This document shows, piece by piece, positions 1 through 54,801 of a DNA stretch of 64,000 nt; the stretch's first letter is position 1; the number at the start of each line of letters is the position of its first letter. Made by a program: the position numbers and the translations under genes. The notes beneath the pieces were generated by a model. It was given only the letters and a program-made list of their open reading frames with translations, made no database searches and had not been told where the DNA came from. This stretch comes from Escherichia coli. GTDB taxonomy: Bacteria > Pseudomonadota > Gammaproteobacteria > Enterobacterales > Enterobacteriaceae. The stretch lies in NCBI RefSeq assembly GCF_016903815.1, contig NZ_CP069973.1; one strand, 5' to 3'.

Positions 1-3126
<3,126 letters not shown>

Positions 3127-3140
3127 CATACTCTCCTTAC

Positions 3141-4655
3141 TCAGGCAACTGCCTGGCTGACTTTAGGCATCGCAAGGCTCAGTGCCTGACGCTCATCTGC
3201 CTGCTCGTGTAACAATTCACCGGCGATTTCACCTTCGCGCATCACCACAATCCGGTCGGCAACGCCGAGGACTTCAGGTAAGTCGCTGGAGGCAAACAGC
3301 ACCGCCACACCCTGCGCCGCCAGCGCATAAATTACGTTATATATTTCGTGCTTAGCGCCAACATCAATGCCGCGCGTAGGTTCATCCAGCAAAATGACCT
3401 TCATCTCTTCCGATAACCAGCGGCCCAGAATGGCTTTTTGCTGATTTCCGCCTGAGAGATTCATGATCAGTTGCTCAGCGCCCGGCGTTTTGATGTTAAG
3501 CGAACGAATGTGGTGATCGGCATTGTTTTCTTCCCAACCGTTGTTGATTACACAACCGCCGAGCACATGTTTACGTCTGGCACTGATGTTGATATTGTCG
3601 CGAACGGAGTGCACAGGAATAATGCCTTCGGCTTTGCGATCTTCCGGGCAGAGCATCATGCCTGCGGCAATGGCGTGGCTCGGTTTACGAATATCGATCG
3701 GCTGTTGGTCGATATAAACCTGACCGGCGGTAATTTGCGTACCGCCAAACATGCCTTTCATTAATTCGCTACGCCCTGCCCCGACCAGACCAAACAGACC
3801 GACAATTTCTCCACTGCGAACCGCCAGACTTATTGGCGTACGCACGCCTGGTGCTTTCACAGCATCAAGACGCAGGCGCTCCTCGCCATAACTACGCGGT
3901 TGCCAGCCGTAGATATCACCGATGTCGCGCCCGACCATCGCCTGCACCAGGGCGTCGTGGTCAACCTGCTGCATATCAGTAAAGGTTTTGACATAACGCC
4001 CATCTTTAAAGACGGTGATGGCATCGCTGAGGGCAAATATTTCTTCCATACGGTGAGAAACGTATAAGATCACCCGCCCCTCTTTTCGCAGTTCACGAAT
4101 AACGCGGAAAAGATTGTCGATTTCACGGGCAGAGAGGGAGCTGGTTGGCTCATCAAAGGCGATAATTTTGGCGTTACGCGCCAGCGCTTTGGCGATTTCA
4201 ACCATCTGCCACTGACCAATGGAGAGATATTTCAGCGGCGTGTCCGGGTCAATATCCATACCAAGATGTTTAAGTTGTAAACCCGCCTCATAATTCAGCA
4301 ATGAGCGATTCACAATGCCGCCTTTATGCGGCAGCTGGCCGAGATAGATGTTTTCCGCGACGGTCATTTCCGGCACGAGATGCAGTTCCTGGTAAATAAT
4401 CGCCACACCCGCGTTAAGTGCTGCGGTCGTGTCGGAAAAGGACATTTCCTGCCCATTAATCACTACAGAACCCGTGGTTGGCGCATAGTTGCCGCTGAGG
4501 ATTTTTAAGAGAGTTGATTTTCCTGCGCCATTTTCACCCATCAACGCATGAACCTGACCGGCATAGCAATCAAAACTAATATCCGTCAGCGCCTTAACGC
4601 CGGGAAACGTTTTACCGATGCCGCGAAATGAGAGATACGGGGTAGACTGTTGCAT
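3141..4655 (-). CDS. araG: L-arabinose ABC transporter ATP-binding protein AraG
   Basis: ORF 3141-4700(-); AraG begins [19 protein letters not shown]; two Walker A motifs ([16 protein letters not shown]). Confidence 0.92.
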
Positions 4656-10527: not shown

Positions 10528-11193
10528 TTAATGCAGGCAGCACTGCTTAAATTTCTTACCACTACCGCACGGGCAAGGATCATTACGCCCCGGTTTCTCT
10601 TCTGCTTTGATCGGTTGCTGAACAGCTTTTTCCTGCGGATGCGCCATCCAGTACGCATGTAGATCAAGCGCCGCCAGTCGAATGGCATCTACGCTCTCTT
10701 CAAACGCTTCTGGCGACATCTTCTCTAACCGCTCGAAGTTTTCCTCAGTACCGTGCAGCGCAATCGCCTCCAGCGCTGGTTTTAACGAATCGGGCAACGT
10801 TGACCAGTCAGAAAGTGCCACGCCCCGCATATAGCCAAAGCACCACTCCTCAACAATCGTCAGCTCGCTGCCATCGACTTCTCGCAAGCCGAATAACGGC
10901 TCAAACTGCTCCGGGAATTCGTTCAGACGCTCTGCGGTATCAGCCATATGCTGAAAAGCCAGGTTCATAAAGCGCGTCATCTCTTTCTCTGACGCCCAGC
11001 GTGGCACATAGTCAGCCCCACCCCACACGGCAACCAGCCACTGTGCCGGTTCAATCTCTTGCGGAGAACTCAACACCGCCGTCAATAAACCGTCCAGCTC
11101 CGCCACATCAAGGATGGCGTGGTCAGTGTTGTATTTGGTCAGAATATCGTCCAGCCATTCCAACTCACTTTCGTTTAACGGTCCCGTTTTCAT
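10528..11193 (-). CDS. yecA: SEC-C metal-binding domain protein YecA
   Basis: ORF 221 aa ending in [13 protein letters not shown]. Confidence 0.9.
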
Positions 11194-11321
11194 ACGCTTT
11201 TCCTTGTGGTTCTCAACTCGCCAGCACCTATCTTACATGCCGGTCCGTATCAGAGATACTTTTTGAGTGGCTTTGCTGGTGATTAATAATTAAGGAGGGT
11301 GTAACGACAAGTTGCAGGTAC

Positions 11322-11345
11322 AAAAAAACCACCCGAAGGTGGTTT
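11322..11345 (-). terminator. Terminator of the glyW-cysT-leuZ tRNA operon
   Basis: Minus-strand hairpin aaaccaccttcgggtggttt followed by a T-run. Confidence 0.6.
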
Positions 11346-11388
11346 CACGACACTGCTTATTGCTTTGATTTTATTCTTATCTTTCCCA

Positions 11389-11475
11389 TGGTACCCGGAG
11401 CGGGACTTGAACCCGCACAGCGCGAACGCCGAGGGATTTTAAATCCCTTGTGTCTACCGATTCCACCATCCGGGC
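11389..11475 (-). tRNA. leuZ: tRNA-Leu (anticodon UAA)
   Basis: Reverse complement reads GCCCGGATGGTGGAATCGGTAGACACAAGGGATTTAAAATCCC...GGGTACCA, 87 nt. Confidence 0.95.
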
Positions 11476-11487
11476 TCGGGAAGAAAG

Positions 11488-11561
11488 TGGAGGCGCGTTC
11501 CGGAGTCGAACCGGACTAGACGGATTTGCAATCCGCTACATAACCGCTTTGTTAACGCGCC
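11488..11561 (-). tRNA. cysT: tRNA-Cys (anticodon GCA)
   Basis: Reverse complement reads GGCGCGTTAACAAAGCGGTTATGTAGCGGATTGCAAATCCG...CTCCA, 74 nt. Confidence 0.95.
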
Positions 11562-11615
11562 AAATTCTTCAGGCCTTTCAGCCAGACATCCGCTTGACGC
11601 CGATGTCTTTTAAAC

Positions 11616-11691
<76 letters not shown>

Positions 11692-11842
11692 ATTCATCAA
11701 GCAATCAGTTAATCACTTGATTTTATTATCGTCTGGCAATCAGTGCCGCCGTTCGATGCGTTGCATTCTACTTACCTGGCGCGATGAGTCAACGATATTT
11801 TTCACCACTTTTGATCGTTTGCTGAAAATTGCGCCGAAACGA

Positions 11843-12391
11843 TCACTGATCAAGCAAATCTGCACGCGCAGCGCTCAAATATTGCAACATTGACCACAGA
11901 GTCAGTACCGCAGCCACAAAGAAAAGTGCAATACCGGCGTACTCAACCCAAATGTTCGGACGCCACAGCAGCCAGGCCAGCGCCACCATCTGGGCAGTGG
12001 TTTTCACTTTCCCAATCCAGGAGACAGCCACGCTACTGCGTTTACCCAACTCCGCCATCCATTCGCGTAGCGCAGAAATAATAATTTCACGGGCGATCAT
12101 CGTTGCTGCCGGTAAGGTCACCCACCAGCTGTGATAATGCTCGGTTACCAGCACCATGGCGATAGCCACGAGAACTTTATCTGCTACAGGGTCAAGGAAA
12201 GCACCAAACCGGGTACTCTGGTTCCAGCGGCGTGCCAGAAAACCATCGAACCAGTCAGTCACCGCCGCGACGCAGAAAATGAGCGCGGCGGCAAACGGCG
12301 ACCAGGTGACAGGCAGATAAAAGACCAATACAAAGAATGGGATAAGGATGACACGGAACAGTGTAAGCAACGTAGGGATATTAAATTGCAT
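11843..12391 (-). CDS. pgsA: CDP-diacylglycerol--glycerol-3-phosphate 3-phosphatidyltransferase PgsA
   Basis: ORF 182 aa [30 protein letters not shown]-alcohol phosphatidyltransferase motif region. Confidence 0.92.
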
Positions 12392-12447
12392 AATGACGGG
12401 TAACTATCTGTTGTCAGTAAGATTACCCCTATGTTGCTACAGAGACA

Positions 12448-14280
12448 TCAATGTTTCAACGACCAGAAGATCTTTTCTGCCAGACCTTGCGAAATACCCG
12501 GCACTTTTGCAATTTCCTCAACGCTGGCGTTACGTAAACCTTGCAAACCGCCCATATATTTCAACAACATTTGCCGACGTTTTGGCCCGACGCCTTCAAT
12601 GGTTTCCAGGGAACTGGTATTTTTGACCTTCGCCCGTTTCTTACGGTGACCACCAATCGCGTGATCGTGAGATTCATCGCGAATATGCTGGATAACATGC
12701 AGCGCGGGAGAATCTGGCGGCAAACTGAATCCCTCACCTTCCGGCTCAAAGAACAGCGTTTCCAACCCTGCCTTCCTATCTGCACCTTTGGCAACGCCAA
12801 GAAGCAGCGGATGATTTTTATCCCATGAGACATCCAGTTCGGCGAAGACATTTTTCGCCTGCGCAAGCTGGCCTTTGCCGCCGTCAATAAGGATCACATC
12901 CGGGATCTTACTGTCGTCGATGGCTTTACCATAACGCCGACGCAGCACCTGATTCATCGCCGCATAATCATCGCCCGGCGTGATGCCAGTAATGTTATAG
13001 CGCCGATACTCCGCACGCAGCGGGCCGTTAGCATCAAACACCACACAGGAAGCGACGGTTTGTTCACCCATGGTATGGCTGATGTCAAAGCACTCCATCC
13101 GCTTCACTTCCGGCAATTTCAACACGCTGGCAAGCGCGGTCAGTCGCTGGTGAACGGTAGATTGCTGCGAAAGTTTGCTGGTTAAGGCCGTCGCCGCATT
13201 GGTGCGCGCGAGTTTCAGATAACGCGCCCGATCGCCGCGAGGTTTGGTTTGAACATTAATCTTGCGTCCCGCCAGTTCTGAAAGGGAATCGGCGAGCAGC
13301 GTTTTATCGCTAAGATTAAAATCGAGCAGGATCTCACCCGGTAAGGTGCGCATCTGGCTGCCTTGTAAATAGAACTGACCTACGAAGGTTTCTACCACCT
13401 CGCTCAGTTCCGTACCGCCAGGCACTTTCGGGAAATAGCTGCGGCTGCCGAGCACTTTGCCCTGACGAATGAACAATACATGGACACAAGCCATTCCCGC
13501 ATCGAACGCCACACCAATAACGTCGAGGTCGTCGCCGGTATTGGACACAAACTGTTTTTCGGTGACGCGTCGCACCGCCTGAATTTGGTCGCGAATACGT
13601 GCCGCTTCTTCAAACTCCAGATTCTGGCTGGCAGTTTCCATACGGCTAATGAGTTGCGTAAGCACCTGATCATCTTTGCCAGACAAAAACAGGCGCACAT
13701 ACTCGACCTGCTGAGCGTATTCTTCTTCACTCACCAGTCCTTCAACGCACGGTCCCAGACAGCGCCCTATCTGATATTGCAGACACGGACGCGAGCGATT
13801 GCGATAAACACTATTTTCGCACTGGCGAATGGGGAATATCTTTTGCAGTAGCGCCAGTGTTTCACGTACGGCATAGCCATTCGGGAACGGGCCGAAATAT
13901 TCACCTTTAGCATGCTTCGCACCACGATGCATCGCCAGACGCGGATGGGTATCGCCACTCAGGAAGATAAAGGGATAAGATTTATCATCGCGTAGCAAAA
14001 CGTTGTAACGCGGCTGATAGAGTTTGATGTAGTTGTGTTCCAGCAACAGCGCTTCGGTTTCTGTATGAGTAACCGTTACATCAATTTGCTGGATCTGGGC
14101 GACCAGCGCTTCGGTTTTGCGCGAAGCGAGGTTGCTACGGAAATAGCTGGAAAGCCGTTTTTTCAGGTCTTTCGCTTTGCCGACATAGATAACCGTACCA
14201 CCAGCATCGTACATGCGATAAACGCCTGGCTGGCTGGTTACGGTTTTTAAAAACGCTTTTGCGTCAAACTGATCACTCAC
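12448..14280 (-). CDS. uvrC: Excinuclease ABC subunit C UvrC
   Basis: ORF 610 aa [47 protein letters not shown] (GIY-YIG). Confidence 0.95.
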
Positions 14281-21362: not shown

Positions 21363-21482
21363 GATAAACAGCCCTGCGTTATATGAGTTATCGGCATGAT
21401 TATCCGTTTCTGCAGGGTTTTTAATCGGACGATTAGTGGGTGAAATGAGGGGTTATTTGGGGGTTACGCAAAAAGCCAATTG

Positions 21483-21508
21483 TAAAAAACCCCGCCGGAG
21501 CGGGGTTT
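21483..21508 (-). terminator. Rho-independent terminator of fliC
   Basis: Minus-strand hairpin caaaccccgctccggcggggtttttt just 3' of the fliC stop. Confidence 0.65.
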
Positions 21509-21525
21509 GAGAGGCATTCAGGCGA

Positions 21526-23178
21526 TTAACCCTGCAGCAGAGACAGAACCTGCTGCGGTACCTGGTTGGCTTTTGCCAGCACGGAGTTGCCTGCCTGCTG
21601 GATGATCTGCGCTTTCGACATATTGGACACTTCGGTCGCATAGTCGGCGTCCTGAATACGGGACTGCGCTTCGGACAGGTTGGTAGTGGTGTTGTTCAGG
21701 TTGGTGACTGCGGAATCCAGACGGTTTTGAACGGCACCGAGGGAGGAGCGGAATTTGTCGATCTGGCTGATAGCGTCGTCAAGAGCTGCCAGCGGATCTG
21801 ATGTTGATTCTGCTTTGCTAGTCGTATCCGTTGTTAACTTACCATCGGAACCTTTGTAGACCAGTTTACCGGCAGCCGCATCCTCAGTAGTTGTGATACT
21901 TCCATCAGCTTGTGCATAGTAAGTTGGCGGAGTATCACTGAGAACCCCATTGCTCATATAAGCGGTGTCTGCAGCAGCAGAACCTGTTGTTACGCTATAA
22001 GTCTTAGCACCTACAGTGGCAGTATAAGTGTCATTTTTTACTGCATTTGCAAATGTATTGGCATCAATGGACATTGATGCACCATCAAACGTTGTACCGT
22101 CACTGGTGAATGTTCCTTTATCAGTTTGGATGGTCGCGGCTTTAGCACCAGTAGCAGTAGCAGTAGCAAGTTTAGCCAAAGTAGCTTGTGTATCACCACC
22201 AGCATTATTTTTAGTTAAGTTACCGGTAGCATCCATATAAAGTACTGCGCCATCATCAGCAGCAGTTAAATTACCGGATTTATCGATGTTTACATCTTGA
22301 TCTTTGCCACCAATTGTAACTGTAGCTTTAGTCGTATCTCCGGCCTGAGGATTGAGGAAAGCAGCCAGATTAGCGCTGGAAATATCATCAGAAGCGGCGG
22401 AATATGAATTAGTGTCTTTATTGTAGGTATAGGTTACAGCAGCGGCTGGTGTACCAAAACCAACATCGGCGCTAGTTGTAACTTTATTTCCATCTGTGCC
22501 AGCAACAGCATTTAGAATATCTACGCTACTTGCTACAGCCGATTTGTCAGTATATTGAGTTACACCAACAGTTCCCCCTGGTGCCGCCGCAGCTGTGAAT
22601 CCAGACATATCTTTCAGGGTTGCTGCCGTATTAGCCGTTTCCCCCTTGCCGTTCACATTAAACCCATTCAGCCCCAGCGTATCAGAGTCAATTTTCTTCA
22701 GATCAATAGTAATCGTTTCGCCATCGTTCGCGCCGACCTGAATTTTCATCGAGCCATCTTTTGACAGTACGTTCACGCCGTTGAACTGGGTCTGGCCGGA
22801 TACGCGGTCAATTTCATCAAGACGGGATTTGATTTCGTCCTGAATGGAGTCCAGGTCAGAGGTGGAGTTAGTTCCGGTCGTCGCCTGAACCGTCAGTTCA
22901 CGAATACGCTGTAAGTTGTTGTTGATTTCGGACAGCGCGCCTTCGGTGGTCTGTGCAACAGAAATACCGTCGTTGGCGTTACGTGCAGCCTGAGTCAGGC
23001 CTTTAATATTAGAAGTAAAACGGTTAGCAATCGCCTGACCTGCGGCGTCATCCTTCGCGCTGTTAATACGCAAGCCAGAAGACAGACGCTCGATAGAACT
23101 CGACAGCGCAGACTGGTTCTTGTTGATATTATTTTGAGTGATCAGCGAGAGGCTGTTGGTATTAATGACTTGTGCCAT
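21526..23178 (-). CDS. fliC: Flagellin FliC, 550 aa, non-K-12 central (H-antigen) domain
   Basis: Conserved N-terminus [53 protein letters not shown] and C-terminus ...[66 protein letters not shown]; Thr/Ala/Gly-rich central region. Confidence 0.95.
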
Positions 23179-25727: not shown

Positions 25728-27215
25728 ATGCGTAATCCCACGCTGTTACAATGTTTTCACTGGTATTACCCGGAAGGCGGTAAGCTCTGGCCTGAACTGG
25801 CCGAGCGCGCAGACGGTTTTAATGATATTGGTATCAATATGGTCTGGTTGCCGCCCGCCTATAAAGGCGCATCGGGCGGCTATTCGGTCGGCTACGACTC
25901 CTATGATTTATTTGATCTAGGTGAGTTTGATCAGAAAGGCAGCATCCCTACTAAATATGGTGATAAAGCACAACTGCTGGCCGCCATTGACGCCCTGAAA
26001 CGTAATGACATTGCGGTGCTGCTGGACGTGGTAGTCAACCACAAAATGGGCGCGGATGAAAAAGAAGCTATTCGCGTGCAGCGTGTAAATGCTGATGACC
26101 GTACGCAAATTGACGAAGAAATCATTGAGTGTGAAGGCTGGACGCGTTACACCTTCCCCGCTCGTGCCGGGCAATACTCGCAGTTTATCTGGGATTTCAA
26201 ATGTTTTAGCGGTATCGACCATATCGAAAACCCTGATGAAGATGGCATTTTTAAAATTGTTAACGACTATACCGGAGAAGGCTGGAACGATCAGGTTGAT
26301 GATGAACTCGGTAATTTCGATTATCTGATGGGGGAGAATATCGATTTTCGCAATCATGCCGTGACGGAAGAGATTAAATACTGGGCGCGCTGGGTGATGG
26401 AACAAACGCAATGCGACGGCTTTCGTCTTGATGCGGTCAAACATATTCCGGCATGGTTTTATAAAGAGTGGATCGAACACGTACAGGAAGTTGCGCCAAA
26501 GCCGTTGTTTATTGTGGCTGAATACTGGTCGCATGAAGTCGATAAACTGCAAACGTATATTGATCAGGTGGAAGGCAAAACCATGCTGTTTGATGCGCCG
26601 CTGCAGATGAAATTCCATGAAGCATCGCGCATGGGTCGCGACTACGACATGACGCAGATCTTCACTGGGACGCTGGTGGAAGCCGATCCTTTTCACGCCG
26701 TAACCCTCGTTGCCAACCACGACACCCAACCGTTGCAAGCCCTCGAAGCCCCCGTCGAACCGTGGTTTAAACCGCTGGCGTATGCCTTAATTTTGTTGCG
26801 GGAAAATGGCGTTCCTTCGGTGTTCTATCCGGACCTCTACGGTGCACATTACGAAGATGTCGGTGGTGACGGGCAAACCTATCCGATAGATATGCCAATA
26901 ATCGAACAGCTTGATGAGTTAATTCTCGCCCGTCAGCGTTTCGCCCACGGTGTACAGACGTTATTTTTCGACCATCCGAACTGCATTGCCTTTAGCCGCA
27001 GTGGCACCGACGAATATCCCGGCTGCGTGGTGGTCATGTCGAACGGAGATGATGGCGAAAAAACCATTCATCTGGGAGAGAATTACGGCAATAAAACCTG
27101 GCGTGATTTTCTGGGGAACCGGCAAGAGAGCGTAGTGACAGACGAAAACGGCGAAGCGACCTTCTTTTGCAACGGCGGCAGCGTCAGCGTGTGGGTTATC
27201 GAAGAGGTGATTTAA
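25728..27215 (+). CDS. amyA: Cytoplasmic alpha-amylase AmyA
   Basis: ORF 495 aa [49 protein letters not shown]13 motifs. Confidence 0.93.
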
Positions 27216-29819: not shown

Positions 29820-30101
29820 GAAGAAGTTTTTGTAAGCCCGCTCAGGGTCTTTCAGTGACTGTTGCAATGGCTGTGAGGGCGAATCTTTAAGCCATTGCGT
29901 TTCAGTGGCATTTTTCCACTCAACCAACCAGGAAGCCATTTTCCCGTAAGGGATGTATTTATTACCGGCCTCATGATTCTCATTCTGAAGCGCCAGAGCA
30001 CGATTGAAAACGAAACGACATGCGCCTGCGAAGCGCCTCATTTCACGCTCCTGTTGACCACCTGGTCTTAACCGGAATTTGAATGCCTGTAGTCGTTTCA
30101 T
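29820..30101 (-). pseudogene. tnpB: tnpB N-terminal fragment (IS605 OrfB / TnpB-family)
   Basis: Only about 95 N-terminal residues are recognisable; RuvC-like and zinc-finger regions are absent. Confidence 0.7.
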
Positions 30102-30123
30102 GGGCCAAATCATACTTTGGCCT

Positions 30124-30481
30124 ATGAAAAAAGAAACCGATATCCGACGCGGAAGGCATTGTGTTTTCCTGAAGCATGTTCACCTAGTCTTCGTTACTAA
30201 ATACCGACGTCAGATTTTTGACCATGACGCGACAGAAAAACTACGCACTTACTTTTCAAATGTATGTGCTGATTTTGAAGCTGAACGGGTTGAAATGGAT
30301 GGCGGACCAGATCACGTCCATTTGTTAATTAACTATCCTCCCAAACTGGCGATATCCAGTCTGGTAAACAGCCTCAAAGGCGTATCGAGTAGGTTACTGC
30401 GACGAGATCGACCAGATATTGCAGTCAGGTATTACGACAAAGGCGTTTTGTGGAGTCCTGGCTATTTTGTCAGTAGCTGCA
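30124..30481 (+). pseudogene. tnpA: tnpA (IS200-type Y1 transposase), probably C-terminally truncated
   Basis: HUH motif HVHLL and a tyrosine in GYF are present; the C-terminal tail after VSSC is unrelated to the family; truncation is inferred from recalled family sequences. Confidence 0.6.
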
Positions 30482-30804
30482 TCTTAACGTATCAACTAGA
30501 TTTAATAACAACGATATCCGTACCTAACCGGATATCTAATGTCATAAGCATCCCTTTAATTATCCCCTCAACCTCTTGTAACTTTCCCACTCTTGAGCTC
30601 CACATAGTCCAAACGCCGGATGCAAAAAAATCACACGTGCATTTCTGAAATTGTGATGGAGGAAGATAGTATCAATTATATGTGCTTAGAAACGTCCCCG
30701 ATTAGCGCAGAAGTCACCGGATTGTTCAGACTCAAATAGGTTGAGTATGCCGTATTTATTTTCCAAAATAAAAATCGATGCTGTTGCTCCTTCATAAAAT
30801 ACTT

Positions 30805-31602
30805 TTACTCTCTGGACGCTTTTCTTAGCTCTCTTGGTGTTATCTTAAAACGATTATGGAACCTTTCAGTAAAACGAGAAGGACACTTGTAACCATTTTC
30901 CCTGGCAATCTCGCTGATGGGTTTTACTGTCGTTTGTATAGCAGACAACGCATTATTTAACCTCACGTCGTCCAATATACTTTGAAAACTTACTCCCTCG
31001 CTTGCCAGACGGCGATGCAATGTGGAAACAGAAATGTAGAGATATCTCGCTACCTTGTTTGCTGTCCATTTTGTTCCAGGTTCGGATAGCATTAGGTTAT
31101 AACAACGACTTATTAATGATTGTTTACTATCTGATAAAAGTAAACAATTAACATGATGTGCTCCTAATGAAAGTAGAACGCCCATTGCTAAGTGTTCCTG
31201 AATTTGCGTTGAGAAGCCTCGGGAAATAGATGTTTTTAGTTGCTCCCAACAATATATTAACTCGGGGTTCTGAGGTAAGCAGAAACCTGTCGTGTTACGA
31301 ATTTGATCAGTTATCGCATAAAATTTTTGAAACTTTTCAATTAGATCAATGGGATAATAAAGCATTTCTGCAAGATAAAGACCTGCTTCTGGATAATTCG
31401 CAATATAAAATTCATATCCACAGGGAAATAATATTATCTGATTATTATCAACAGTTAGACTATGCGTCTCCCAATTGATAACTTTTTTTCCCTGACGGAT
31501 ACGACATAAAGCTGGCATAAGAGGCTTAACCCTGTGAATCTCATGATGTTTATGCATCCGTATTTCTTCAATCTTTAGGTTAGTCTTATCTTTTGCCAGC
31601 AT
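30805..31602 (-). CDS. ybcM: AraC-family transcriptional regulator (YbcM-like)
   Basis: ORF 265 aa with a C-terminal AraC-type HTH ([40 protein letters not shown]); resembles the YbcM of the K-12 DLP12 prophage as I recall it. Confidence 0.75.
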
Positions 31603-31611
31603 ACTCTTACC

Positions 31612-32163
31612 CTACTTTATCTCATAAACTGGTGTTATCTCAGCGGTTGCAATTTTATTGGCATTAAGCATATAACCAACTAACGCTCCGCTGGAATTAG
31701 AATCCACAGGAATTTTATCAGTTTTTAGAGCCCATACTTTAAACTGGTAATGATGGGGTTTATCTCCTTTGGGAGGACATGCTCCACCAAATCCTGCATA
31801 ACCAAAATCATTTCGGCCTTGAACAGCACCAGTCGGAAGTTTTGTACCATCACGTCTTCCTGCATCAGCGGGCAAATATGTTACAGTTGCTGGAATATTA
31901 GCAACAGTCCAGTGCCACCATCCACTGCCTGTAGGAGCATCTGGATCATACACAGTTACGGCAAAGCTTTTGGTGCCTTCAGGAGCACCAGACCAGGTTA
32001 ATGAGGGCGATGTATTACCACCTTCACACCCAAATCCAGAAAATACATGAGACGTTGTAAGTTGCTCTCCTGTTTTTATTTCATTACTAGTGACCTGAAA
32101 TGCTGCGGCCTGCGCAGAAAATGTTATGAATGCCAATACACTTGAAACGATAAGTTTTTTCAT
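31612..32163 (-). CDS. ybcL: PEBP/UPF0098-family periplasmic protein (YbcL-like)
   Basis: ORF 183 aa with signal peptide MKKLIVSSVLAFITFSAQA and PEBP motifs (DPDAP, GYAGFGGACPPKGDKPHHYQF). Confidence 0.8.
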   Translation of the reverse strand: MKKLIVSSVLAFITFSAQAAAFQVTSNEIKTGEQLTTSHVFSGFGCEGGNTSPSLTWSGAPEGTKSFAVTVYDPDAPTGSGWWHWTVANIPATVTYLPADAGRRDGTKLPTGAVQGRNDFGYAGFGGACPPKGDKPHHYQFKVWALKTDKIPVDSNSSGALVGYMLNANKIATAEITPVYEIK

Positions 32164-32331
32164 AAAAACCTCATTGTTGTGACCTATCGTTATTTTATTT
32201 GATGTGCCTTGATCTCATTATGCATAAAGGCGCAATGATCGCGCAAATGCAATCATAATTATAAAGGTGCCCCGAACATTAGCCATAATATGCACAAATC
32301 AGATTCCTGTTATCTCAAGGATAATTATTTT

Positions 32332-32664
32332 TTAATGCGGTGCACTTCGTGACAACAAGTTAATGACTAACACACCGGCACAAATCAACATCATGCCTAT
32401 GATAGCTGGCAGGTCCAGTCGTTGACCAAAAAATCCCCAGGAAAGCAAACTAATCAGAACGATACCGACGCCTGACCAGATAGCATAAGCAATCCCTGTA
32501 GGTATATAAGCCAGCGTCTGAGCTAATAACCAGAATGATGCACAATAGCAAATAATTGTGCCAACAGAGGGCCATAACCGTGTAAACCCCTCTGAAAACT
32601 TCATTAAGGTTGTACCAATGACCTCTGCAAGTATTGCGCCACCAAGATAAATATAAGGGTTCAT
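32332..32664 (-). CDS. emrE: Small multidrug resistance (SMR) efflux protein EmrE
   Basis: ORF 32332-32844(-); protein from MNPYIYLGGAILAEVIGTTLMKFSEGFTRLWPSVG is 110 aa and near-identical to EmrE, including the conserved Glu14. Confidence 0.88.
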   Translation of the reverse strand: MNPYIYLGGAILAEVIGTTLMKFSEGFTRLWPSVGTIICYCASFWLLAQTLAYIPTGIAYAIWSGVGIVLISLLSWGFFGQRLDLPAIIGMMLICAGVLVINLLSRSAPH

Positions 32665-33007
32665 AGCATATTCTTTCCTGTTCATACTGGAGAGAATTGT
32701 ACTACAGTTTGAACACAACTCACCGTTTTCATCCTGGTGTATGTGTATCCAGGGGGCTCTGGCGTGGCAAGAGATAAAGGCAGGAACAATAATGATCAGA
32801 AGGAACCCCAGGCTAACGAATGAGTTCACTCTTCCTGGGAGCAAAGCGAAGACAAAACATGTTATCGCGTTTACGGATCGTGGATGGCAGAAAACTTTCA
32901 GGATCAGGTATCCATTTTAAACCAGAAATTGAGTGAGTTTGCCCCATCCATGCCCCACGCTGTGGGACCGGATATAATAAACAAGCATAGTCAACAGGTT
33001 ACAAAAC

Positions 33008-41811: not shown

Positions 41812-42177
41812 ATGAATAACCACGCTACTGTGCAATCTTCTGCGCCGGTTTCTGCTGCGCCACTGCTGCAGGTGAGCGGCGCACTCATCGCCATTATTGC
41901 CCTGATCCTCGCTGCTGCCTGGCTGGTAAAACGGCTGGGATTTGCCCCTAAACGCACTGGCGTTAACGGTCTGAAAATTAGCGCCAGTGCTTCACTGGGC
42001 GCGCGTGAACGGGTTGTGGTGGTCGATGTGGAAGATGCACGGCTGGTGCTCGGCGTTACCGCAGGGCAAATCAATCTGCTGCATAAACTTCCCCCTTCAG
42101 CACCAACGGAAGAGATACCGCAGACCGATTTTCAGTCGGTTATGAAAAACTTGCTTAAGCGTAGCGGGAGATCCTGA
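41812..42177 (+). CDS. fliO: Flagellar biosynthesis protein FliO
   Basis: ORF 41809-42177; FliO begins [43 protein letters not shown]. Confidence 0.9.
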
Positions 42178-43987: not shown

Positions 43988-44013
43988 TTCCGTAACGTTT
44001 ATCATGTTATCCT

Positions 44014-44027
44014 AAGGATTATCCGAA
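44014..44027 (+). promoter_or_regulatory. Candidate RcsAB box upstream of rcsA
   Basis: taaggattatccga resembles the RcsAB box consensus TaAGaatatTCctA as I recall it; position upstream of rcsA fits autoregulation. Confidence 0.45.
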
Positions 44028-44276
44028 AAATAATACCTACGAACATCTTCCAGGATACTCCTGCGGCGAAATATTTGTTTTAAGCTCACTCACATATCGC
44101 AACATTTACTTTACTTTAAGACAATTCCAGGCAAATTATACAACACTTTACGGGATAGTAAGTCCGCCTGAAAAATCGCGAGAGTGGCGCATTAGGTGAC
44201 CCATGTTGTTCCGTTTAGTCATGATGAAATATTCAGGTAAGGGGAATTATCGTTACGCATTGAGTGAGGGTATGCC

Positions 44277-44900
44277 ATGTCAACGATTATTATGGATTTA
44301 TGTAGTTACACCCGACTAGGTTTAACCGGGTATCTGTTGAGTAGAGGGGTTAAAAAAAGAGAAATCAACGACATTGAAACCGTTGATGACCTTGCCATAG
44401 CTTGTGATTCACAGCGCCCTTCAGTGGTGTTTATTAATGAGGACTGTTTCATCCACGATGCTTCTAACAGTCAGCGTATCAAGTTCATCATTAATCAACA
44501 TCCCAATACGTTATTTATCGTTTTTATGGCAATTGCCAATGTTCATTTTGATGAATATCTATTGGTCAGAAAAAATTTATTGATCAGTTCTAAATCGATT
44601 AAACCGGAATCTCTCGACGATATCCTTGGCGATATTCTGAAAAAAGAGACAACGATAACCTCGTTTTTAAATATGCCGACGTTATCATTGAGCCGAACCG
44701 AATCGAGTATGTTGCGAATGTGGATGGCAGGTCAGGGAACCATTCAAATCTCTGACCAAATGAATATCAAAGCCAAGACCGTTTCATCGCATAAAGGTAA
44801 TATTAAACGTAAGATCAAAACGCATAATAAACAGGTTATCTACCATGTCGTCCGACTGACGGATAATGTGACTAATGGTATTTTTGTCAACATGCGCTAA
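44277..44900 (+). CDS. rcsA: Capsule synthesis regulator RcsA (LuxR-family)
   Basis: ORF 207 aa [44 protein letters not shown]. Confidence 0.93.
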
Positions 44901-44943
44901 CACATTCTGACTGGTGGTTTCCCACCAGTCAGGCCGAATTAGA

Positions 44944-45222
<279 letters not shown>

Positions 45223-45294
45223 CTATACTTAAGAGATGCCAGGCGGACTTAACGACTGGCCGCAACAACAGAGTAACGGTTGCGAGGAAAGATG

Positions 45295-45522
45295 ATGAAA
45301 ACCGCAAAAGAGTACAGCGATACCGCAAAACGTGAGGTCAGCGTCGATGTCGATGCCCTGCTGGCGGCGATCAATGAAATTAGCGAAAGCGAAGTTCATC
45401 GCAGCCAGAACGATTCTGAACACGTTAGCGTCGATGGACGTGAATATCATACATGGCGTGAATTGGCGGATGCCTTCGAACTGGATATTCATGACTTCAG
45501 CGTCTCTGAAGTGAATCGTTGA
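45295..45522 (+). CDS. yodD: Stress-induced small protein YodD
   Basis: ORF 45280-45522; YodD begins MKTAKEYSDTAKREVSVDVDALLAAINEISESEVHRSQ. Confidence 0.88.
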   Translation: MKTAKEYSDTAKREVSVDVDALLAAINEISESEVHRSQNDSEHVSVDGREYHTWRELADAFELDIHDFSVSEVNR

Positions 45523-45534
45523 ATGCACAATAAA

Positions 45535-45622
45535 AAAATCCCGACCCTGAGGGGGTCGGGATGAAACTTGCTTAAGCAAGAAGCACTTAAAAAATTCGTT
45601 ACACCAGGAAATCTGATGTGTT
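45535..45622 (-). ncRNA. dsrA: Small regulatory RNA DsrA (Hfq-dependent; activates rpoS translation, represses hns)
   Basis: Reverse complement reads AACACATCAGATTTCCTGGTGTAACGAATTTTTTAAGTGCTTCTTGCTTAAGCAAGTTTCATCCCGACCCCCTCAGGGTCGGGATTT, including the terminator hairpin. Confidence 0.92.
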
Positions 45623-45801
45623 CATCACCTTATCCGCAATTTTTTTCGCTGACAAGAAAATATTCGTGATATGAATGATTAACGCTACTTATGAATAGAA
45701 ATGTGACGCGCGTCACCCCTTGGTGGCTCTGGCGTCAACGGGATCGCTCCCGAAAAAATCATCTTTGATAATTTGTGCTGTTTTGAGAATCATCCTGGTA
45801 A

Positions 45802-48326
<2,525 letters not shown>

Positions 48327-48410
48327 CCTGACGACTCCCAACCTGCTTTTTTATGATTCTGGCATAACCTGGCGATAGCGTACCGCAAAACAGCGATAAT
48401 TTTATAATGG

Positions 48411-48550
48411 TGGCATGATAAGACGCGACAGACATCGATAGTTTTATAACGTAGGCATGATAAGACGCGATAGCGTCGCATCAGGCAATTCAGTGCAGAC
48501 ACTGGCACACCCGACCGGATGCGACGTGAGCGCCACATCCGGTCGGGTGT
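48411..48550. repeat. REP/BIME-type extragenic palindromic repeat cluster
   Basis: Tandem gtaggcatgataagacgcga units and ccggatgcgacg...catccggtcggg palindromes typical of enterobacterial REP sequences. Confidence 0.6.
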
Positions 48551-48563
48551 TAATGATACCCTT

Positions 48564-48746
48564 TCAAACTTCTTCCGCAGAACGACTCCCCTCCCCCGGA
48601 ACAAGCTCGGTTTCATGAAAAGCTTCCCGCTTGACCCCGTAACCGTCATACCAACGACACTCAACCATACCGCTGGAGTATCCGGTGACAATCATCCGCG
48701 GGCCGCCCTCTTTAACCGTAACTTCCTCACTAACCATAAAGCTCAT
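48564..48746 (-). CDS. yodC: Small protein YodC
   Basis: ORF 60 aa MSFMVSEEVTVKEGGPRMIVTGYSSGMVECRWYDGYGVKREAFHETELVPGEGSRSAEEV. Confidence 0.85.
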   Translation of the reverse strand: MSFMVSEEVTVKEGGPRMIVTGYSSGMVECRWYDGYGVKREAFHETELVPGEGSRSAEEV

Positions 48747-48824
48747 ACTCGCCTCCTTTTTTCGAGTGAAACTTGTTCACCTTAGTTGAAGATGGCGAAT
48801 TTTGCATAATAGCCTGTGCGAGTA

Positions 48825-49742
48825 TTAATGTGCCTGACCGCGTATTTTCGCTACGGCTTTCACTCCCAGCACCACGATGCCGCCGATGATAAATCCAAGA
48901 ATCAGATTTAAAACAGTCGGTAATATCATCGCCACCACTGCACTTTGCTGCCCGGCGAAATGTTCAATGGCGTGATGCAGCGGCGCAATTCCATGTACCA
49001 CAATCCCACCGCCGACGAGGAACATCGCCAGCGTGCCGACAATCGATAACGCCTTCATCAACCAGGGCGCAATGATCAATAACCCTTTACCTAATGCCTG
49101 CATCAGCGCGCTGGATTTTTCCGCCAGCCAATACCCCAGGTCATCAATCTTAACGATAACCCCTACCAGACCGTAGACGCCCACGGTCACTACCAGCGCG
49201 ATGCCTGAAAGCACCAGCACCTGATTAAGCAACGGCGCTTCGGCCACAATCCCCAGCGTGATGGCGACGATTTCCGCAGACAATATAAAATCGGTACGAA
49301 TCGCCCCTTTTATTTTGTCTTTTTCAAACTTCAGCGGATCCTGCGCCGCCAGCTTCTCCAGACGCTGCTGACTCTGCGCCGGATCTTCTTTATGTTTACG
49401 CGCCTCCAGCATATGCAGCACTTTCTCTACCCCTTCAAAGCAGAGAAACGCGCCGCCAATCATCAACAGTGGCGTAATCGCCCACGGGATAAACGCACTG
49501 ATGATCAGCGCCAGCGGCACCAGAATCACTTTATTGATCAGCGATCCTTTCGCCACGCCCCAGACCACGGGAAGTTCCCGGTTGGCGCGCACGCCTGAAA
49601 CTTGTTGCGCATTGAGCGATAAGTCATCCCCTAATACACCGGCGGTTTTCTTCGCCGCCAGTTTGCCCATCACGGAGATATCGTCCAGCAGTGTGGCGAT
49701 ATCATCGAGCAACGTCAGTAAACTACTCCCGGCCAAAAGCAT
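48825..49742 (-). CDS. yedI: DUF808 inner-membrane protein YedI
   Basis: ORF 305 aa [47 protein letters not shown]. Confidence 0.88.
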
Positions 49743-49914
49743 TCCCTCTCATTTTTATTGTTGAAGGGTGTAAGTATGAAGCAAAAACGGCAGCTCTGAT
49801 ACTTGCTTCACAGGTCAACATTTATTTAACAATCAAGTGCAATTATATCTCTCGCCAGCAGAATGATTTTCACGTTTACTATGAACCACCTTTTTATTTC
49901 AGCCGTGAGGGATT

Positions 49915-50835
49915 ATGCGTTTCCGCCAGTTGTTACCGCTTTTTGGCGCGCTGTTTGCGTTGTATATCATTTGGGGCTCAACCTATTTTGTCATTCGGAT
50001 TGGCGTGGAAAGCTGGCCTCCGTTAATGATGGCGGGCGTTCGATTCCTGGCAGCCGGTATTTTATTGCTGGCATTTTTGCTACTGCGCGGACACAAACTT
50101 CCCCCGCTACGTCCGCTGCTCAATGCCGCGCTGATTGGCCTGTTATTGCTGGCTGTCGGTAATGGCATGGTGACGGTTGCCGAACATCAAAATGTTCCTT
50201 CCGGCATCGCCGCCGTTGTGGTTGCAACCGTGCCCCTCTTTACCCTGTGCTTCAGCCGCCTGTTTGGCATTAAAACGCGCAAACTGGAATGGGTGGGTAT
50301 CGCCATTGGGCTTGCCGGAATCATCATGCTCAATAGCGGTGGAAATTTAAGCGGCAATCCGTGGGGCGCGATTCTGATTTTAATCGGCTCGATTAGCTGG
50401 GCGTTTGGCTCGGTTTATGGCTCGCGCATTACCTTACCTGTAGGGATGATGGCGGGTGCGATTGAGATGCTGGCGGCTGGCGTGGTGTTAATGATTGCGT
50501 CGATGATTGCGGGTGAAAAACTGACGGCGCTCCCTTCCCTTTCAGGCTTCCTTGCGGTCGGCTATCTGGCGCTGTTTGGTTCGATTATCGCCATTAACGC
50601 TTATATGTATTTAATCCGCAACGTCAGTCCGGCTCTCGCCACCAGCTACGCCTACGTTAACCCAGTGGTCGCGGTCTTGCTGGGTACGGGGCTGGGTGGC
50701 GAAACGCTGTCGAAGATTGAATGGCTGGCGCTCGGCGTAATTGTTTTCGCGGTGGTACTGGTCACGTTGGGAAAATATCTCTTCCCGGCCAAACCCGTTG
50801 TCGCGCCAGTTATTCCGGATGCATCAAGCGAGTAA
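49915..50835 (+). CDS. yedA: EamA/DMT-family transporter YedA
   Basis: ORF 306 aa MRFRQLLPLFGALFALYIIWGSTYFVIRIG. Confidence 0.9.
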   Translation: MRFRQLLPLFGALFALYIIWGSTYFVIRIGVESWPPLMMAGVRFLAAGILLLAFLLLRGHKLPPLRPLLNAALIGLLLLAVGNGMVTVAEHQNVPSGIAAVVVATVPLFTLCFSRLFGIKTRKLEWVGIAIGLAGIIMLNSGGNLSGNPWGAILILIGSISWAFGSVYGSRITLPVGMMAGAIEMLAAGVVLMIASMIAGEKLTALPSLSGFLAVGYLALFGSIIAINAYMYLIRNVSPALATSYAYVNPVVAVLLGTGLGGETLSKIEWLALGVIVFAVVLVTLGKYLFPAKPVVAPVIPDASSE

Positions 50836-51294
50836 ATGAATCCCCTGCGTGTCGATCTGCGCGCTGGCACCTTCGCCGCAGATCCACTCTTCCAGACGCT
50901 CGGTAAGCGCCGCATCCGTCAGCTTCTCGCGCCCGCGTAACGCACATTCCCAGACAATCAATACGCGCCAACCGAGTTCCTGCAAATGGCTGATATCACG
51001 ACGATCGCGCTCGACATTTTTACCTATCTTCTCCAGCCAAAAATCTGTTCGCGTGGCGGGGACTTTAAACAGGTAGCAATGGTGATGGTGCCAGAAGCAA
51101 CCGTGGGCAAATATCACACAGCGAAATTCATCAAGGACAAAATCCGGGCGTCCGGGCAGACTGGCGTCCTGAACGCGAAACGCCAGGCCCTGCCCAGTTA
51201 ACAAACTGGCGAGGCGCTTCTCAATCGCCGTATCACGCGTGGCAATCGCGCGCATATTTTTGCTGCGGGTGGCCTTATCGTGAACGTCGACCAT
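50824..51294 (-). CDS. vsr: Very-short-patch repair endonuclease Vsr
   Basis: ORF 50824-51456(-); Vsr-like region begins M(V)[30 protein letters not shown]; 5' end overlaps the 3' end of dcm. Confidence 0.9.
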
Positions 51295-52693
51295 GTTGTG
51301 CCTCTTGCTGACGCAACGCCACCGCCTGTTTGATTTTTGGCTCAAGCAGTTTTGCCACCGCGGCAAAGACCGGCACGACCACCGAGTTACCGAACTGGCG
51401 ATAAGCCTGAGTGTCCGAAACCGGAATGCGGAATTTCGCTTCTCCCGGCGCTTCAAAACCCATTAAGCGCGCACATTCCCGAGGCGTTAACCGACGTGGG
51501 CGATGTTGCTGATTCAGCGGATCGTCAAAGTCTTTCTCACCCGTTGCCATATCCCAGCCGCGATCGATTAAAATTTCCGCGCCATCTTTGTAATAACGCG
51601 CAGACAGCGTACGCGTGACGCTTTGCGGATTGTTCGGATAAACCATTCCATAACCGAAGCCGTTACCGCGCGCCTGATGTTTTTTCGCATATCGATAGAG
51701 GTACTTCCACAGTACCGGCGTCAGGATATATTTCGCCTCGACCATCGGGTCCAGCAGCTGCGCCAGCGTCACTCGCTGTGCAGGGAAACATTTGCTGATA
51801 TCACGCAGAGTAAAATCGGCTTTCAGATTCAGATCGCGACGAAAACCCACCAGCACGATGCGTTCACGGTGCTGCGGCAGAAAATGTTTGCCGTCGATGA
51901 TTTTCGGATCGTCCGGCCCGTTATCTTCTGCATCAGCCACGTCATAGCCCAGTTCGTCCAGCGTCTGCATGATGATGCGGAACGTTTTACCCTGGTCGTG
52001 ACTTTTCAGGTTTTTGACGTTTTCGAGCACAAACATCGCCGGACGACGCGCGTCGATAATGCGCACCACATCAAAGAACAGCGTGCCCTGGGTATCGCAG
52101 GCAAAACCGTGCGCCCGCCCGAGCGAGTTCTTTTTCGATACGCCAGCCAGCGAAAATGGCTGACAAGGGAAACCGGCCAGTAAAACATCGTGTTCAGGAA
52201 TGTGTTGACGAATATGTTCCGCCGCCGCCTCATCACTCACGCCTTCTTGATGGCTGAGGGTGATGTCGCGGATATCCTCATTAAAATGATGCGTCGCCGG
52301 GTCGCAATAATGGTTGGCTTTATAAGTGCGTACCGCATGTTTGTTCCATTCGCTGGTAAACACGCACTGTCCACCAATCGATTCAAAACCGCGACGGATG
52401 CCGCCAATTCCGGCAAATAGATCGATAAAGCGAAACGCATAATGCGGATGATGTGCCGGTGGTTTGGGTAACAACGTTTGCAGATGGGCGAACTCTTTCT
52501 CACTTAAACGGTGCCATGCCGAGTCATTCGCCAGCGCACGTTTTAAAATTGCCGCGCTCCAGTGATTCTCACCCACACCATTAAGCTGCGCCACCAGCGT
52601 TTTAACATCATAAATTTGCAGCAGTTTCTCCAGCATTGCCTGTGCGGCATTCCCGGTGCTGTATGAATCGGTTACTGATATATTTTCCTGCAT
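51275..52693 (-). CDS. dcm: DNA-cytosine C5 methyltransferase Dcm (CCWGG)
   Basis: ORF 472 aa [33 protein letters not shown] with FxGxGG (DLFAGIGG), PCQ and ENV motifs. Confidence 0.95.
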
Positions 52694-52759
52694 AGATTTA
52701 ACCGGCCATCTGAGATGGCCGACAGGTTAACATAATTACTGCCGTTTAGGGCCACGCGC

Positions 52760-53197
52760 TCAGCCAGCAGGTGAAAACGCATCTATCACCTTGTGATCGA
52801 TACCTTCATTCTCCCCCGCCAGTTCGGCACCGAGCTTCGCCATAAACTCGACTAAAAATTGCGCGTTGTGCTGTGCCAGCTGCTTGCCTCTTGCGGTTTG
52901 CATGGTTTGCGGTAATTTCAGTAACTTTGTCTGGAAATGATCCAGCGCGTAGCGTTTATCATCAAGCGGGCGATGCTGTGCGAACGGATCTTCGCCATCA
53001 AACAGCGCCAAGCCCAATGCCCCTGAAACGGCAAATACGCGCGCCAGGCCAATCGCCCCCAGGGCTTCCAGCCGATCCGCATCCTGGACGATTTTAGCTT
53101 CCGTTGTTAAGGGGGCGATTTGCGCGCTGAAACTGTGAGCGGCAATGGCATGACAAACGGCCTCAATTTTCTCCGCCGGAAATTGCACGAACTCTTC
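52760..53197 (-). pseudogene. yedJ: yedJ (HD-domain phosphohydrolase) lacking its 5' end, which is replaced by IS1
   Basis: Reading frame (E)[25 protein letters not shown]... runs up to the IS1 end at 53198; roughly 85 N-terminal codons are absent (length from memory). Confidence 0.8.
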
Positions 53198-53252
53198 GGT
53201 AATGCTGCCAACTTACTGATTTAGTGTATGATGGTGATTTTAAGGTGCTTGC

Positions 53253-53528
53253 GTGGCTTCCATTTCCATCAGATGTCCTTCCTGCTCCGCTACTGAAGGC
53301 GTGGTGCGTAACGGCAAAAGCACTGCCGGACATCAGCGCTATCTCTGCTCTCATTGCCGTAAAACATGGCAACTACAGTTCACTTACACCGCCTCTCAGC
53401 CCGGTAAGCACCAGAAAATCATTGATATGGCCATGAATGGCGTCGGATGTCACGCCAGTGCACGCATTATGGGCGTTGGCCTCAACACGGTTTTACGTCA
53501 CTTAAAAAACTCAGGCCGCAGTCGGTAA
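53253..53528 (+). CDS. insA: IS1 InsA
   Basis: ORF 91 aa [66 protein letters not shown]. Confidence 0.95.
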
Positions 53529-53950
53529 CCTCGCGCATACAACCGGGCAGTGATGTGATTGTCTGCGCTGAAATGGACGAACAGTGGGGCTACGTCGGTG
53601 CTAAATCACGTCAGCGCTGGCTGTTTTACGCGTATGACAGGATACGGAGGACGGTTGTGGCGCACGTCTTCGGTGAACGCACTCTGGCCACACTGGAGCG
53701 TCTTCTGAGCCTGCTGTCGGCCTTTGAGGTCGTGGTATGGATGACGGATGGCTGGCCGCTGTATGAATCACGCCTGAAGGGAAAGCTGCACGTTATCAGC
53801 AAGCGTTACACTCAGCGCATTGAGCGACATAATCTGAATCTGAGACAACATCTGGCAAGGCTGGGACGGAAGTCACTGTCGTTCTCAAAATCGGTGGAGC
53901 TGCATGACAAGGTCATCGGGCATTATCTGAACATAAAACACTATCAGTAA
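53447..53950 (+). CDS. insB: IS1 InsB (expressed as InsAB' fusion by -1 frameshift)
   Basis: ORF 167 aa ...[110 protein letters not shown]. Confidence 0.93.
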
Positions 53951-53965
53951 GTTGGAGTCATTACC

Positions 53966-54694
53966 CCAAAACCGTATCGCGGTAAACATAAAATTCTGGT
54001 GATCGCCGCGGACGAACGTTATTTGCCGACCGATAACGGAAAACTGTTCTCGACCGGTAACCATCCGATTGAAACGTTGCTGCCGTTGTATCATCTCCAT
54101 GCTGCAGGTTTCGAATTCGAAGTGGCGACCATTTCCGGTCTGATGACCAAGTTTGAATACTGGGCTATGCCGCACAAAGATGAAAAAGTAATGCCATTCT
54201 TTGAGCAGCATAAATCGTTGTTCCGCAATCCGAAAAAACTCGCGGATGTTGTCGTCAGCCTCAACGCAGACAGCGAATATGCAGCAATCTTTGTTCCTGG
54301 TGGTCATGGCGCACTTATTAGTTTACCAGAAAGCCAGGACGTGGCTGCTGCTTTGCAGTGGGCAATCAAAAATGACCGTTTTGTTATCTCCCTTTGCCAC
54401 GGCCCGGCGGCTTTTCTGGCGCTTCGCCACGGCGATAACCCACTGAATGGTTATTCCATTTGCGCATTCCCAGACGCCGCAGACAAACAAACGCCAGAGA
54501 TAGGCTATATGCCGGGTCATCTCACCTGGTACTTCGGCGAAGAGCTGAAGAAAATGGGCATGAACATTATTAATGACGACATCACCGGGCGAGTACATAA
54601 GGACCGTAAAGTTCTCACCGGCGACAGTCCTTTCGCAGCGAATGCGTTGGGTAAACTGGCGGCGCAGGAAATGCTGGCAGCTTATGCGGGTTAA
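53966..54694 (+). pseudogene. hchA: hchA (Hsp31 glyoxalase/chaperone) lacking its first ~41 codons and native promoter
   Basis: Frame resumes at PKPYRGKHKILVIAADERYLPTDNGKLFSTGNHPIE... directly after the IS1 right end; the remainder is colinear with HchA to the stop. Confidence 0.85.
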
Positions 54695-54730
54695 TCCCTG
54701 TTACGTATGAATGTAAGCGCATAATCAATC

Positions 54731-54768
54731 GCAGCCACGTTAATACTCACGACGTGGCTGCGTTTTTT
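54731..54768 (+). terminator. Rho-independent terminator after hchA
   Basis: gcagccacgt...acgtggctgc hairpin followed by tttttt. Confidence 0.65.
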
Positions 54769-54801
54769 CATGGTTGATTTATGGCGTACTGAAGCCCTAT
54801 G

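Follow-up and report, generated by a model that had tools for sequence, protein, structure and literature searches.

Intact dsrA and an IS1-bordered loss of rseX on a haplotype contiguous with the yersiniabactin island of Escherichia coli

Has the small-RNA content around dsrA been altered in this Escherichia coli chromosome and, if so, does the alteration reach dsrA itself? In K-12, DsrA is an Hfq-dependent sRNA, made mostly at low temperature, that opens the rpoS leader and so activates RpoS translation, and that pairs with hns mRNA and represses H-NS; its rpoS- and hns-pairing regions were defined by work in K-12. RseX, by comparison, represses ompA and ompC when overproduced and has a reported part in fimbrial regulation; H-NS silences it, and in wild-type cells it escapes detection (PMC8313858). 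A comparison of 27 genomes placed DsrA among the core hub sRNAs and RseX among the variable, peripheral ones, with independent losses of RseX in S. dysenteriae, S. flexneri and E. coli HS (PMC3318445).

Here, we describe a 64,000-nucleotide stretch of contig NZ_CP069973.1 (the window), which spans the fli-rcsA-dsrA-dcm-hprRS-asnT region of the E. coli chromosome. Taken together, the evidence leaves us highly confident that dsrA is intact and identical to its K-12 counterpart, that an IS1-marked deletion removed rseX together with its neighbours, and that these features belong to an inherited, island-linked block that was moved by recombination.

The dsrA gene and its promoter

The features in and around dsrA are the following.

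44277 to 44900, plus strand: rcsA, a 207-aa ORF collinear with K-12 rcsA
44944 to 45132, minus strand: dsrB, a 62-aa ORF collinear with K-12 dsrB
45295 to 45522, plus strand: yodD, collinear with K-12 yodD, with its TGA stop codon at 45520-45522
45532 to 45622, minus strand: the dsrA sRNA gene, with +1 at 45622 and the transcript running to 45532 through the terminator U-tract
45538 to 45562, minus strand: stem-loop 3 of dsrA, the intrinsic terminator hairpin, from the terminator scan and direct reading of the sequence
45627 to 45655, minus strand: the dsrA core promoter, from the alignment to K-12 and direct reading of the sequence
45820 to 46635, plus strand: yedP, mannosyl-3-phosphoglycerate phosphatase-like, a 271-aa ORF named from the K-12 annotation

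When the whole window was scanned with Rfam, DsrA was the single sRNA to match at the gathering threshold, the remaining matches being five tRNAs (leuZ-cysT-glyW at 11.4-11.7 kb, serU at 60.7 kb and asnT at 61.8 kb). Minus-strand positions 45536-45622 matched RF00014 with a score of 102.5 bits, above the gathering score of 60 (E = 1.5e-18), and aligned over the full model (1-85 of 85) with zero non-canonical pairs flagged. The 91-nt dsrA feature of the K-12 MG1655 RefSeq genome (b1954) is identical at 91 of 91 positions to the window read from 45622 down to 45532, and by this match the rpoS- and hns-pairing regions are the same as those of the characterised K-12 RNA; the target genes rpoS and hns are located outside the window. 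The predicted fold of the transcript has three stem-loops at -31.9 kcal/mol (z = -5.7), a stability equalled by none of 200 shuffled sequences. The third stem-loop is the Rho-independent terminator, which the scan called with 10 pairs, 7 of them G-C, and a loop of 5; T7 follows at 45532-45538, and the terminator lies 10 bp past the stop codon of the convergent yodD. On the other side yedP is divergent from dsrA, and the gene order rcsA-dsrB-yodD-dsrA-yedP is exactly that of K-12. The gene thus has the sequence-level marks of DsrA: covariance score, three stem-loops closing in a terminator, identity to K-12, synteny and a promoter of its own.

A sequence-only reading of the window had placed a complete dsrA, terminator hairpin included, at 45535-45622 in the expected rcsA-dsrB-yodD-dsrA context. 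The covariance score, the K-12 identity and the terminator scan bear out the completeness of the gene, K-12 annotation and BLAST collinearity bear out the context, and the interval is correct to within the 3' U-tract.

In strain 7/2, which is otherwise identical to the window, an IS200C element is inserted directly after the terminator U-tract and before the yodD stop codon (2822-3530 of that locus, equivalent to about 45531 of the window), with the dsrA sequence untouched.

The core promoter consists of a -35 hexamer TTGTCA (45655-45650), a 17-nt spacer and a -10 hexamer TAAGGT (45632-45627), all of which, together with the +1, are identical to K-12 in the alignment. Both hexamers are weak and the generic sigma-70 scan did not flag them, so the promoter call rests on identity to the K-12 promoter. 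The latter we take to be the one of Repoila & Gottesman 2003, of which a core of ~36 bp reportedly suffices for temperature control. The nearest upstream difference is CA in place of GG at -46/-45 (window 45667-45668), with a few changes further up; if the ~36-bp core carries the temperature response, this polymorphism falls outside it. The 158-bp sequence comprising dsrA and its promoter was found in 5,339 of 5,426 complete E. coli genomes, in each at 95% identity or more, and is 100% conserved in other genomes.

In its 91-nt sequence, stem-loops, terminator, core promoter and rcsA-dsrB-yodD-dsrA-yedP synteny, the gene is therefore the same as K-12 DsrA, and its locus differs from that of K-12 solely in the upstream polymorphisms. 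The surrounding backbone is more divergent, with ~10-27 changes per kb relative to K-12 in the bins around dsrA, and belongs to a haplotype common to the island-positive strains O26 and ML35. One might argue that a structurally intact dsrA is nonetheless silent or differently regulated here, either through the CA/GG change and the few substitutions above it or through the context of an imported haplotype, and the IS200C of strain 7/2, just 3' of the terminator, indicates that disruption nearby is tolerated. We consider this quite unlikely, given a -35, spacer, -10 and +1 that are all those of K-12, the reported sufficiency of the short core and the full conservation of the 158-bp sequence in other genomes. 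With gene and core promoter identical to K-12, DsrA is expected, from its sequence, to function here as it does there.

The IS1-bordered deletion and the absence of rseX

The K-12 interval from fliP to yeeJ was compared with the window by BLAST. The two are collinear at 97-98% identity with two exceptions, namely the IS1 deletion described here and the yodB replacement described below. At the first, ~7.6 kb from dsrA, 3,136 bp of the K-12 locus (10823-13958) give way to 768 bp in the window, with the following features.

52760 to 53197, minus strand: yedJ remnant, residues 85-231 only, with the 5' 258 bp gone
53198 to 53965, plus strand: IS1, 768 bp, recognised by BLAST against K-12, its terminal inverted repeats and its insA and insB frames
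53253 to 53528, within IS1: insA, 91 aa
53447 to 53950, within IS1: the insB frame, 167 aa
53966 to 54694, plus strand: hchA remnant, from about residue 42 to 283, with promoter and start codon absent

The inserted element has the ~768-bp length of IS1, ends with matching terminal inverted repeats (GGTAATGCTGCCAACTTACTGAT... and ...CAGTAAGTTGGAGTCATTACC) and insA and insB joined by a programmed frameshift; in genomes identical to the window, PGAP labels it an IS1 family transposase with programmed frameshift. Its sequence is 90.9% identical to that of K-12 IS1H, a distance that points to a divergent IS1 isoform. The K-12 DNA missing from the window comprises the first 258 bp of yedJ, drpB (yedR), rseX, the yedS pseudogene, and the promoter and first 123 bp of hchA. 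In agreement with these endpoints, tblastn places residues 85-232 of K-12 YedJ (the query including its stop codon) at 53203 down to 52760, and aligns HchA from residue 38 to 284, with K-12 DNA collinearity restarting at 53966; no trace of DrpB was detected in the window by tblastn. In identical genomes the two remnants are annotated as 'HD domain-containing protein, missing N-terminus' (yedJ) and 'missing N-terminus' (hchA).

IS1 is multicopy, matching at a median of 11 places per genome with a 3.5-kb query spanning the junction, and is a classic cause of misassembly, which raises the possibility that reads were collapsed across IS1 copies and that the junction is an artefact. The same junction, however, is present in 463 of the 5,426 complete genomes (~9%), mostly at 100% identity; these were sequenced independently, in many laboratories and from many hosts, and the PGAP annotation is consistent in all three of the carrier genomes inspected. 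The chance of an artefact is therefore negligible.

The 9-bp flanks of the element, GAACTCTTC and CCAAAACCG, are unrelated to each other, and their comparison revealed no target-site duplication of 8-9 bp. Because the flanks are not duplicated, the structure is an IS1-bordered deletion and not a simple insertion. One IS1 copy that marks the join of a deletion and has no target duplication is the textbook outcome of either of two processes, adjacent deletion and recombination of one IS1 with another. The window agrees with these known processes in having a single 768-bp IS1 exactly at the junction and no 8-9-bp duplication, and departs from the familiar case in the 90.9% identity of its element to IS1H. 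The deletion would thus have arisen either by intramolecular transposition of IS1, generating an adjacent deletion, or by recombination between two direct IS1 copies. Either route would leave one IS1 joining yedJ codon 85 to roughly hchA codon 42 and, in the same event, would remove drpB, rseX and yedS and inactivate yedJ and hchA. Among the 5,426 genomes, an intermediate with an intact interior and IS1 at a single breakpoint was sought with a two-part query, for which a 9-bp duplication and an unchanged IS1 orientation were assumed; no genome covered either full junction. With no intermediate found, the one-step and two-IS routes are inseparable, and nothing argues for two steps.

Several searches establish that rseX is absent from the window. 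The Rfam model RF01401 had no match at its gathering score anywhere in the window, and lowering the cutoff to E <= 10 over 44000-64000 returned no rseX, just chance or REP-type matches (naRNA4 and plastid or miRNA models). With blastn-short, K-12 rseX, both alone and with its flanks, and the whole deleted K-12 interval gave chance 10-17-mers only. The same Rfam scan of the K-12 locus recovered rseX at 97.7 bits (gathering score 50), and this positive control makes the negative scan of the window meaningful. Neither sequence nor covariance identifies any remnant of K-12 RseX (RF01401; b4603), the Hfq-dependent repressor of ompA and ompC, and the drpB-rseX-yedS interval that would hold it is gone. 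The loss of rseX is thus certain for the window.

The naRNA4 matches, REP/BIME-derived and below the gathering score of 59.5, lie at 48454-48544 (43.3 bits) and 59125-59190 (35.8 bits) and are ordinary intergenic REP elements; the second has 60 nt in common with the REP inside K-12 FliX.

The K-12 noncoding RNAs that map to the interval compare as follows, four being conserved and two lacking a counterpart.

azuR: 99.4% identical to K-12
3'ETS-leuZ: 100% identical to K-12
sdsN: 97.1% identical to K-12
dsrA: 100% identical to K-12
rseX: deleted
FliX: no syntenic counterpart

FliX, the sRNA from the fliC 3'UTR (K-12 locus 25913-26107), has no syntenic counterpart at window 21380-21525. The fliC 3'UTR of both the window and O26 is without the ~155-nt REP-containing insert of K-12, only the terminator hairpin being in common. 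FliX is thus a second sRNA, besides rseX, in which the window departs from K-12.

The window is 64 kb of a ~5-Mb genome, and rseX could in principle have been relocated to another place on the chromosome or to a plasmid of this strain. Across E. coli, the rseX region was found in 4,880 of 5,426 genomes at 4,883 places, that is, with 3 extra places, and 2 of the places are on plasmids; the gene is essentially single-copy. To bring junction carriers to the top of the ranking, 198 bp of yedJ were joined to 20 bp of IS1 and then to 191 bp of K-12 rseX in a chimeric query. All 48 junction-carrying chromosomes among the matches listed have one place, the junction, in a result that gives one row per record, so that a plasmid-borne copy would not show in the row of the chromosome. 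Strains 222, AR_0372, AR_0015 and AR_0006 are among these 48; each matches the last 25 kb of the window at 100% identity, and at least 25 genomes are identical over that length. Some part of the chimeric query was found in 5,366 genomes; subtracting the 4,880 holders of rseX leaves 486 that match in the yedJ/junction half only, slightly more than the 463 junction carriers, and the counts therefore force no overlap between junction and rseX. The single place in every listed junction chromosome and the single-copy state of rseX in the 4,880 genomes make relocation highly improbable. With a single copy of rseX the rule in E. coli, this genome would lack the RseX arm of porin and fimbrial regulation, its absence outside the window being read from near-identical proxy genomes.

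The converse possibility is that this lineage never had the rseX-yedS segment and that K-12 holds an insertion, as might be suspected of a neighbourhood that was perhaps horizontally acquired and is H-NS-silenced (PMC8313858). An ancestral gap, however, would hardly be filled by IS1 or ignore gene boundaries as this one does, cutting the conserved backbone genes yedJ (at codon 85) and hchA (at about codon 42), and the segment is present in 4,880 of 5,426 genomes in all identity bands. We regard an ancestral absence as extremely doubtful, and a deletion remains the preferred reading.

The suggestion that an IS1-associated deletion downstream of dsrA had removed rseX is thereby confirmed, and the 'probably' attached to that loss can be dropped for the window. 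The accompanying statement, that small-RNA content is altered in this strain and not at dsrA, stands as to both genes and fails as to scope: the change is shared by at least 463 genomes and is not specific to the strain. The deletion also takes more than that reading described, with drpB, yedS and the ends of yedJ and hchA lost along with rseX; each of its elements is otherwise supported.

A shared haplotype contiguous with the yersiniabactin island

Carriers of the junction include human, animal and environmental isolates, O26 and O103 strains and the laboratory strain ML35 as well as an ST405 strain, the last assignment resting on strain 50579417 (reported as ST405; PMC6046176), a 100% match to the window over the 3.5-kb junction query only. 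In the comparison with O26 RM10386 and ML35, the features of the shared segment are as follows.

42125 to at least 64000, strand not applicable: haplotype block, ~99.9% identical to O26 RM10386 and ML35
60034 to 60255, in the block: yodB replacement
60703 to 60792, in the block: serU tRNA
61784 to 61859, in the block: asnT tRNA
62010 to 62936: island int fragment, at the start of the yersiniabactin island
63130 onward: ybtS of the yersiniabactin island

Between 41000 and 42124 the window has 27 differences from these two genomes (~24 per kb), the same level as is seen against K-12, or against O26 further to the left (~2%). From there on the density drops to ~1 per kb, with 22 differences from O26 and 12 from ML35 in the remaining 21.9 kb. 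In this comparison, the left edge of the block is a sharp breakpoint just after 42124, in fliO/fliP. Strain 7/2, O26 RM10386 and ML35 share the same order of features, namely truncated yedJ, IS1, truncated hchA, absence of yodB, serU, mtfA and asnT, followed by a frameshifted integrase and then ybtS and ybtX, with which the yersiniabactin High-Pathogenicity Island begins.

At 60034-60255, an unrelated 222 bp stand where K-12 has 995 bp that include yodB (cytochrome b561). No YodB remnant was detected in the window by tblastn, and an annotation of yodB is likewise absent in strain 7/2, O26 and ML35.

Left of the block, the window also departs from the reference genomes. A 3-kb segment between yedK and fliE (29832-32861), absent from K-12 and O26, carries the following.

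30079 to 30648: IS200-like transposase
30805 to 31602, minus strand: AraC-type regulator
31612 to 32163, minus strand: PEBP-family protein
32332 to 32844, minus strand: SMR-family transporter

The fliC gene (21526-23178, minus strand) encodes 550 aa, and its central region could not be aligned with the flagellin of K-12 or O26, which indicates a different H type. The match of fliD to O26 is poor.

The integrase frame beside asnT (62010-62936) is 308 aa long with Phage_integrase domains (Pfam) and is frameshifted in identical genomes. Such a defective integrase would be consistent with an island that is no longer able to excise.

Schubert et al. 2009 concluded that the island, fixed at asnT, spreads in E. 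coli on large fragments that also contain flanking backbone and that are transferred by conjugation and exchanged by homologous recombination (PMC2606025). Upstream of the island, that study sequenced 837 bp only (the yeeI/mtfA gene), and IS1, hchA, yedS and dsrA go unmentioned in it (PMC2606025). The window resembles the strains in that account in the asnT site, the defective integrase, the near-identical flank across unrelated backgrounds and the sharp breakpoint, and it differs in the extent of the upstream flank, which reaches ~20 kb to fliO/fliP and includes the IS1 deletion and dsrA. What would be expected of a co-transferred haplotype, a near-identical flank against an otherwise ~2% diverged backbone with a discrete boundary between them, is what we found. 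Since the drop in divergence at 42124 continues into the island, the island is inherited as one block with dsrA, the IS1 deletion and the yodB replacement. The deletion is accordingly old and inherited: the block that carries it measures at least 22 kb, is contiguous with the island at asnT and has moved between phylogenetic backgrounds, as we read it by homologous recombination of island-flanking DNA. The pattern, as read from these genome comparisons, fits the known spread of the island by flanking recombination.

The deletion is not an obligatory companion of the island: E. coli Nissle, which carries the yersiniabactin island, retains rseX.

Consequences for small-RNA content and for the haplotype

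Each kind of feature observed here is known, from the core and variable sRNAs to the IS1 deletion and the recombination of an island flank, and their arrangement is ordinary. A core DsrA and a variable RseX form an already published pattern, confirmed here, and the absence of rseX from the window matches the published independent losses of RseX (PMC3318445). Because RseX is peripheral, silent under H-NS and below detection in the wild type, its loss is expected to have little phenotype in ordinary conditions. At least as much weight probably falls on DrpB, HchA (glyoxalase III), YedJ and YedS, which are lost with it, and the removal of drpB and yedS with the truncation of yedJ and hchA is arguably a larger change than the loss of an sRNA that escapes detection in the wild type.

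A bolder proposal is that the deletion goes beyond a neutral scar, being a selected or hitchhiking part of a haplotype of at least 22 kb that was swept with the island into unrelated lineages. Linkage of the deletion to the island and its spread across backgrounds are observed. Selection may have acted on the block. On this proposal the deletion would also have removed a hypothetical latent path running from DsrA, which represses H-NS, through H-NS, which silences RseX, to ompA/ompC and fimbrial output, with DsrA on the same block left intact. We think this proposal improbable.

At the firmer level of what the sequence records, the known co-transferred flank is extended from less than 1 kb to ~20 kb upstream of asnT. 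The haplotype is without DrpB, YedS, YodB and functional YedJ and HchA (glyoxalase III/Hsp31), and its carriers include the multidrug-resistant clinical strain 50579417 (ST405) as well as O26 and O103 strains. For the ~9% of complete E. coli genomes that have it, sRNA networks based on K-12 are unsafe to assume.
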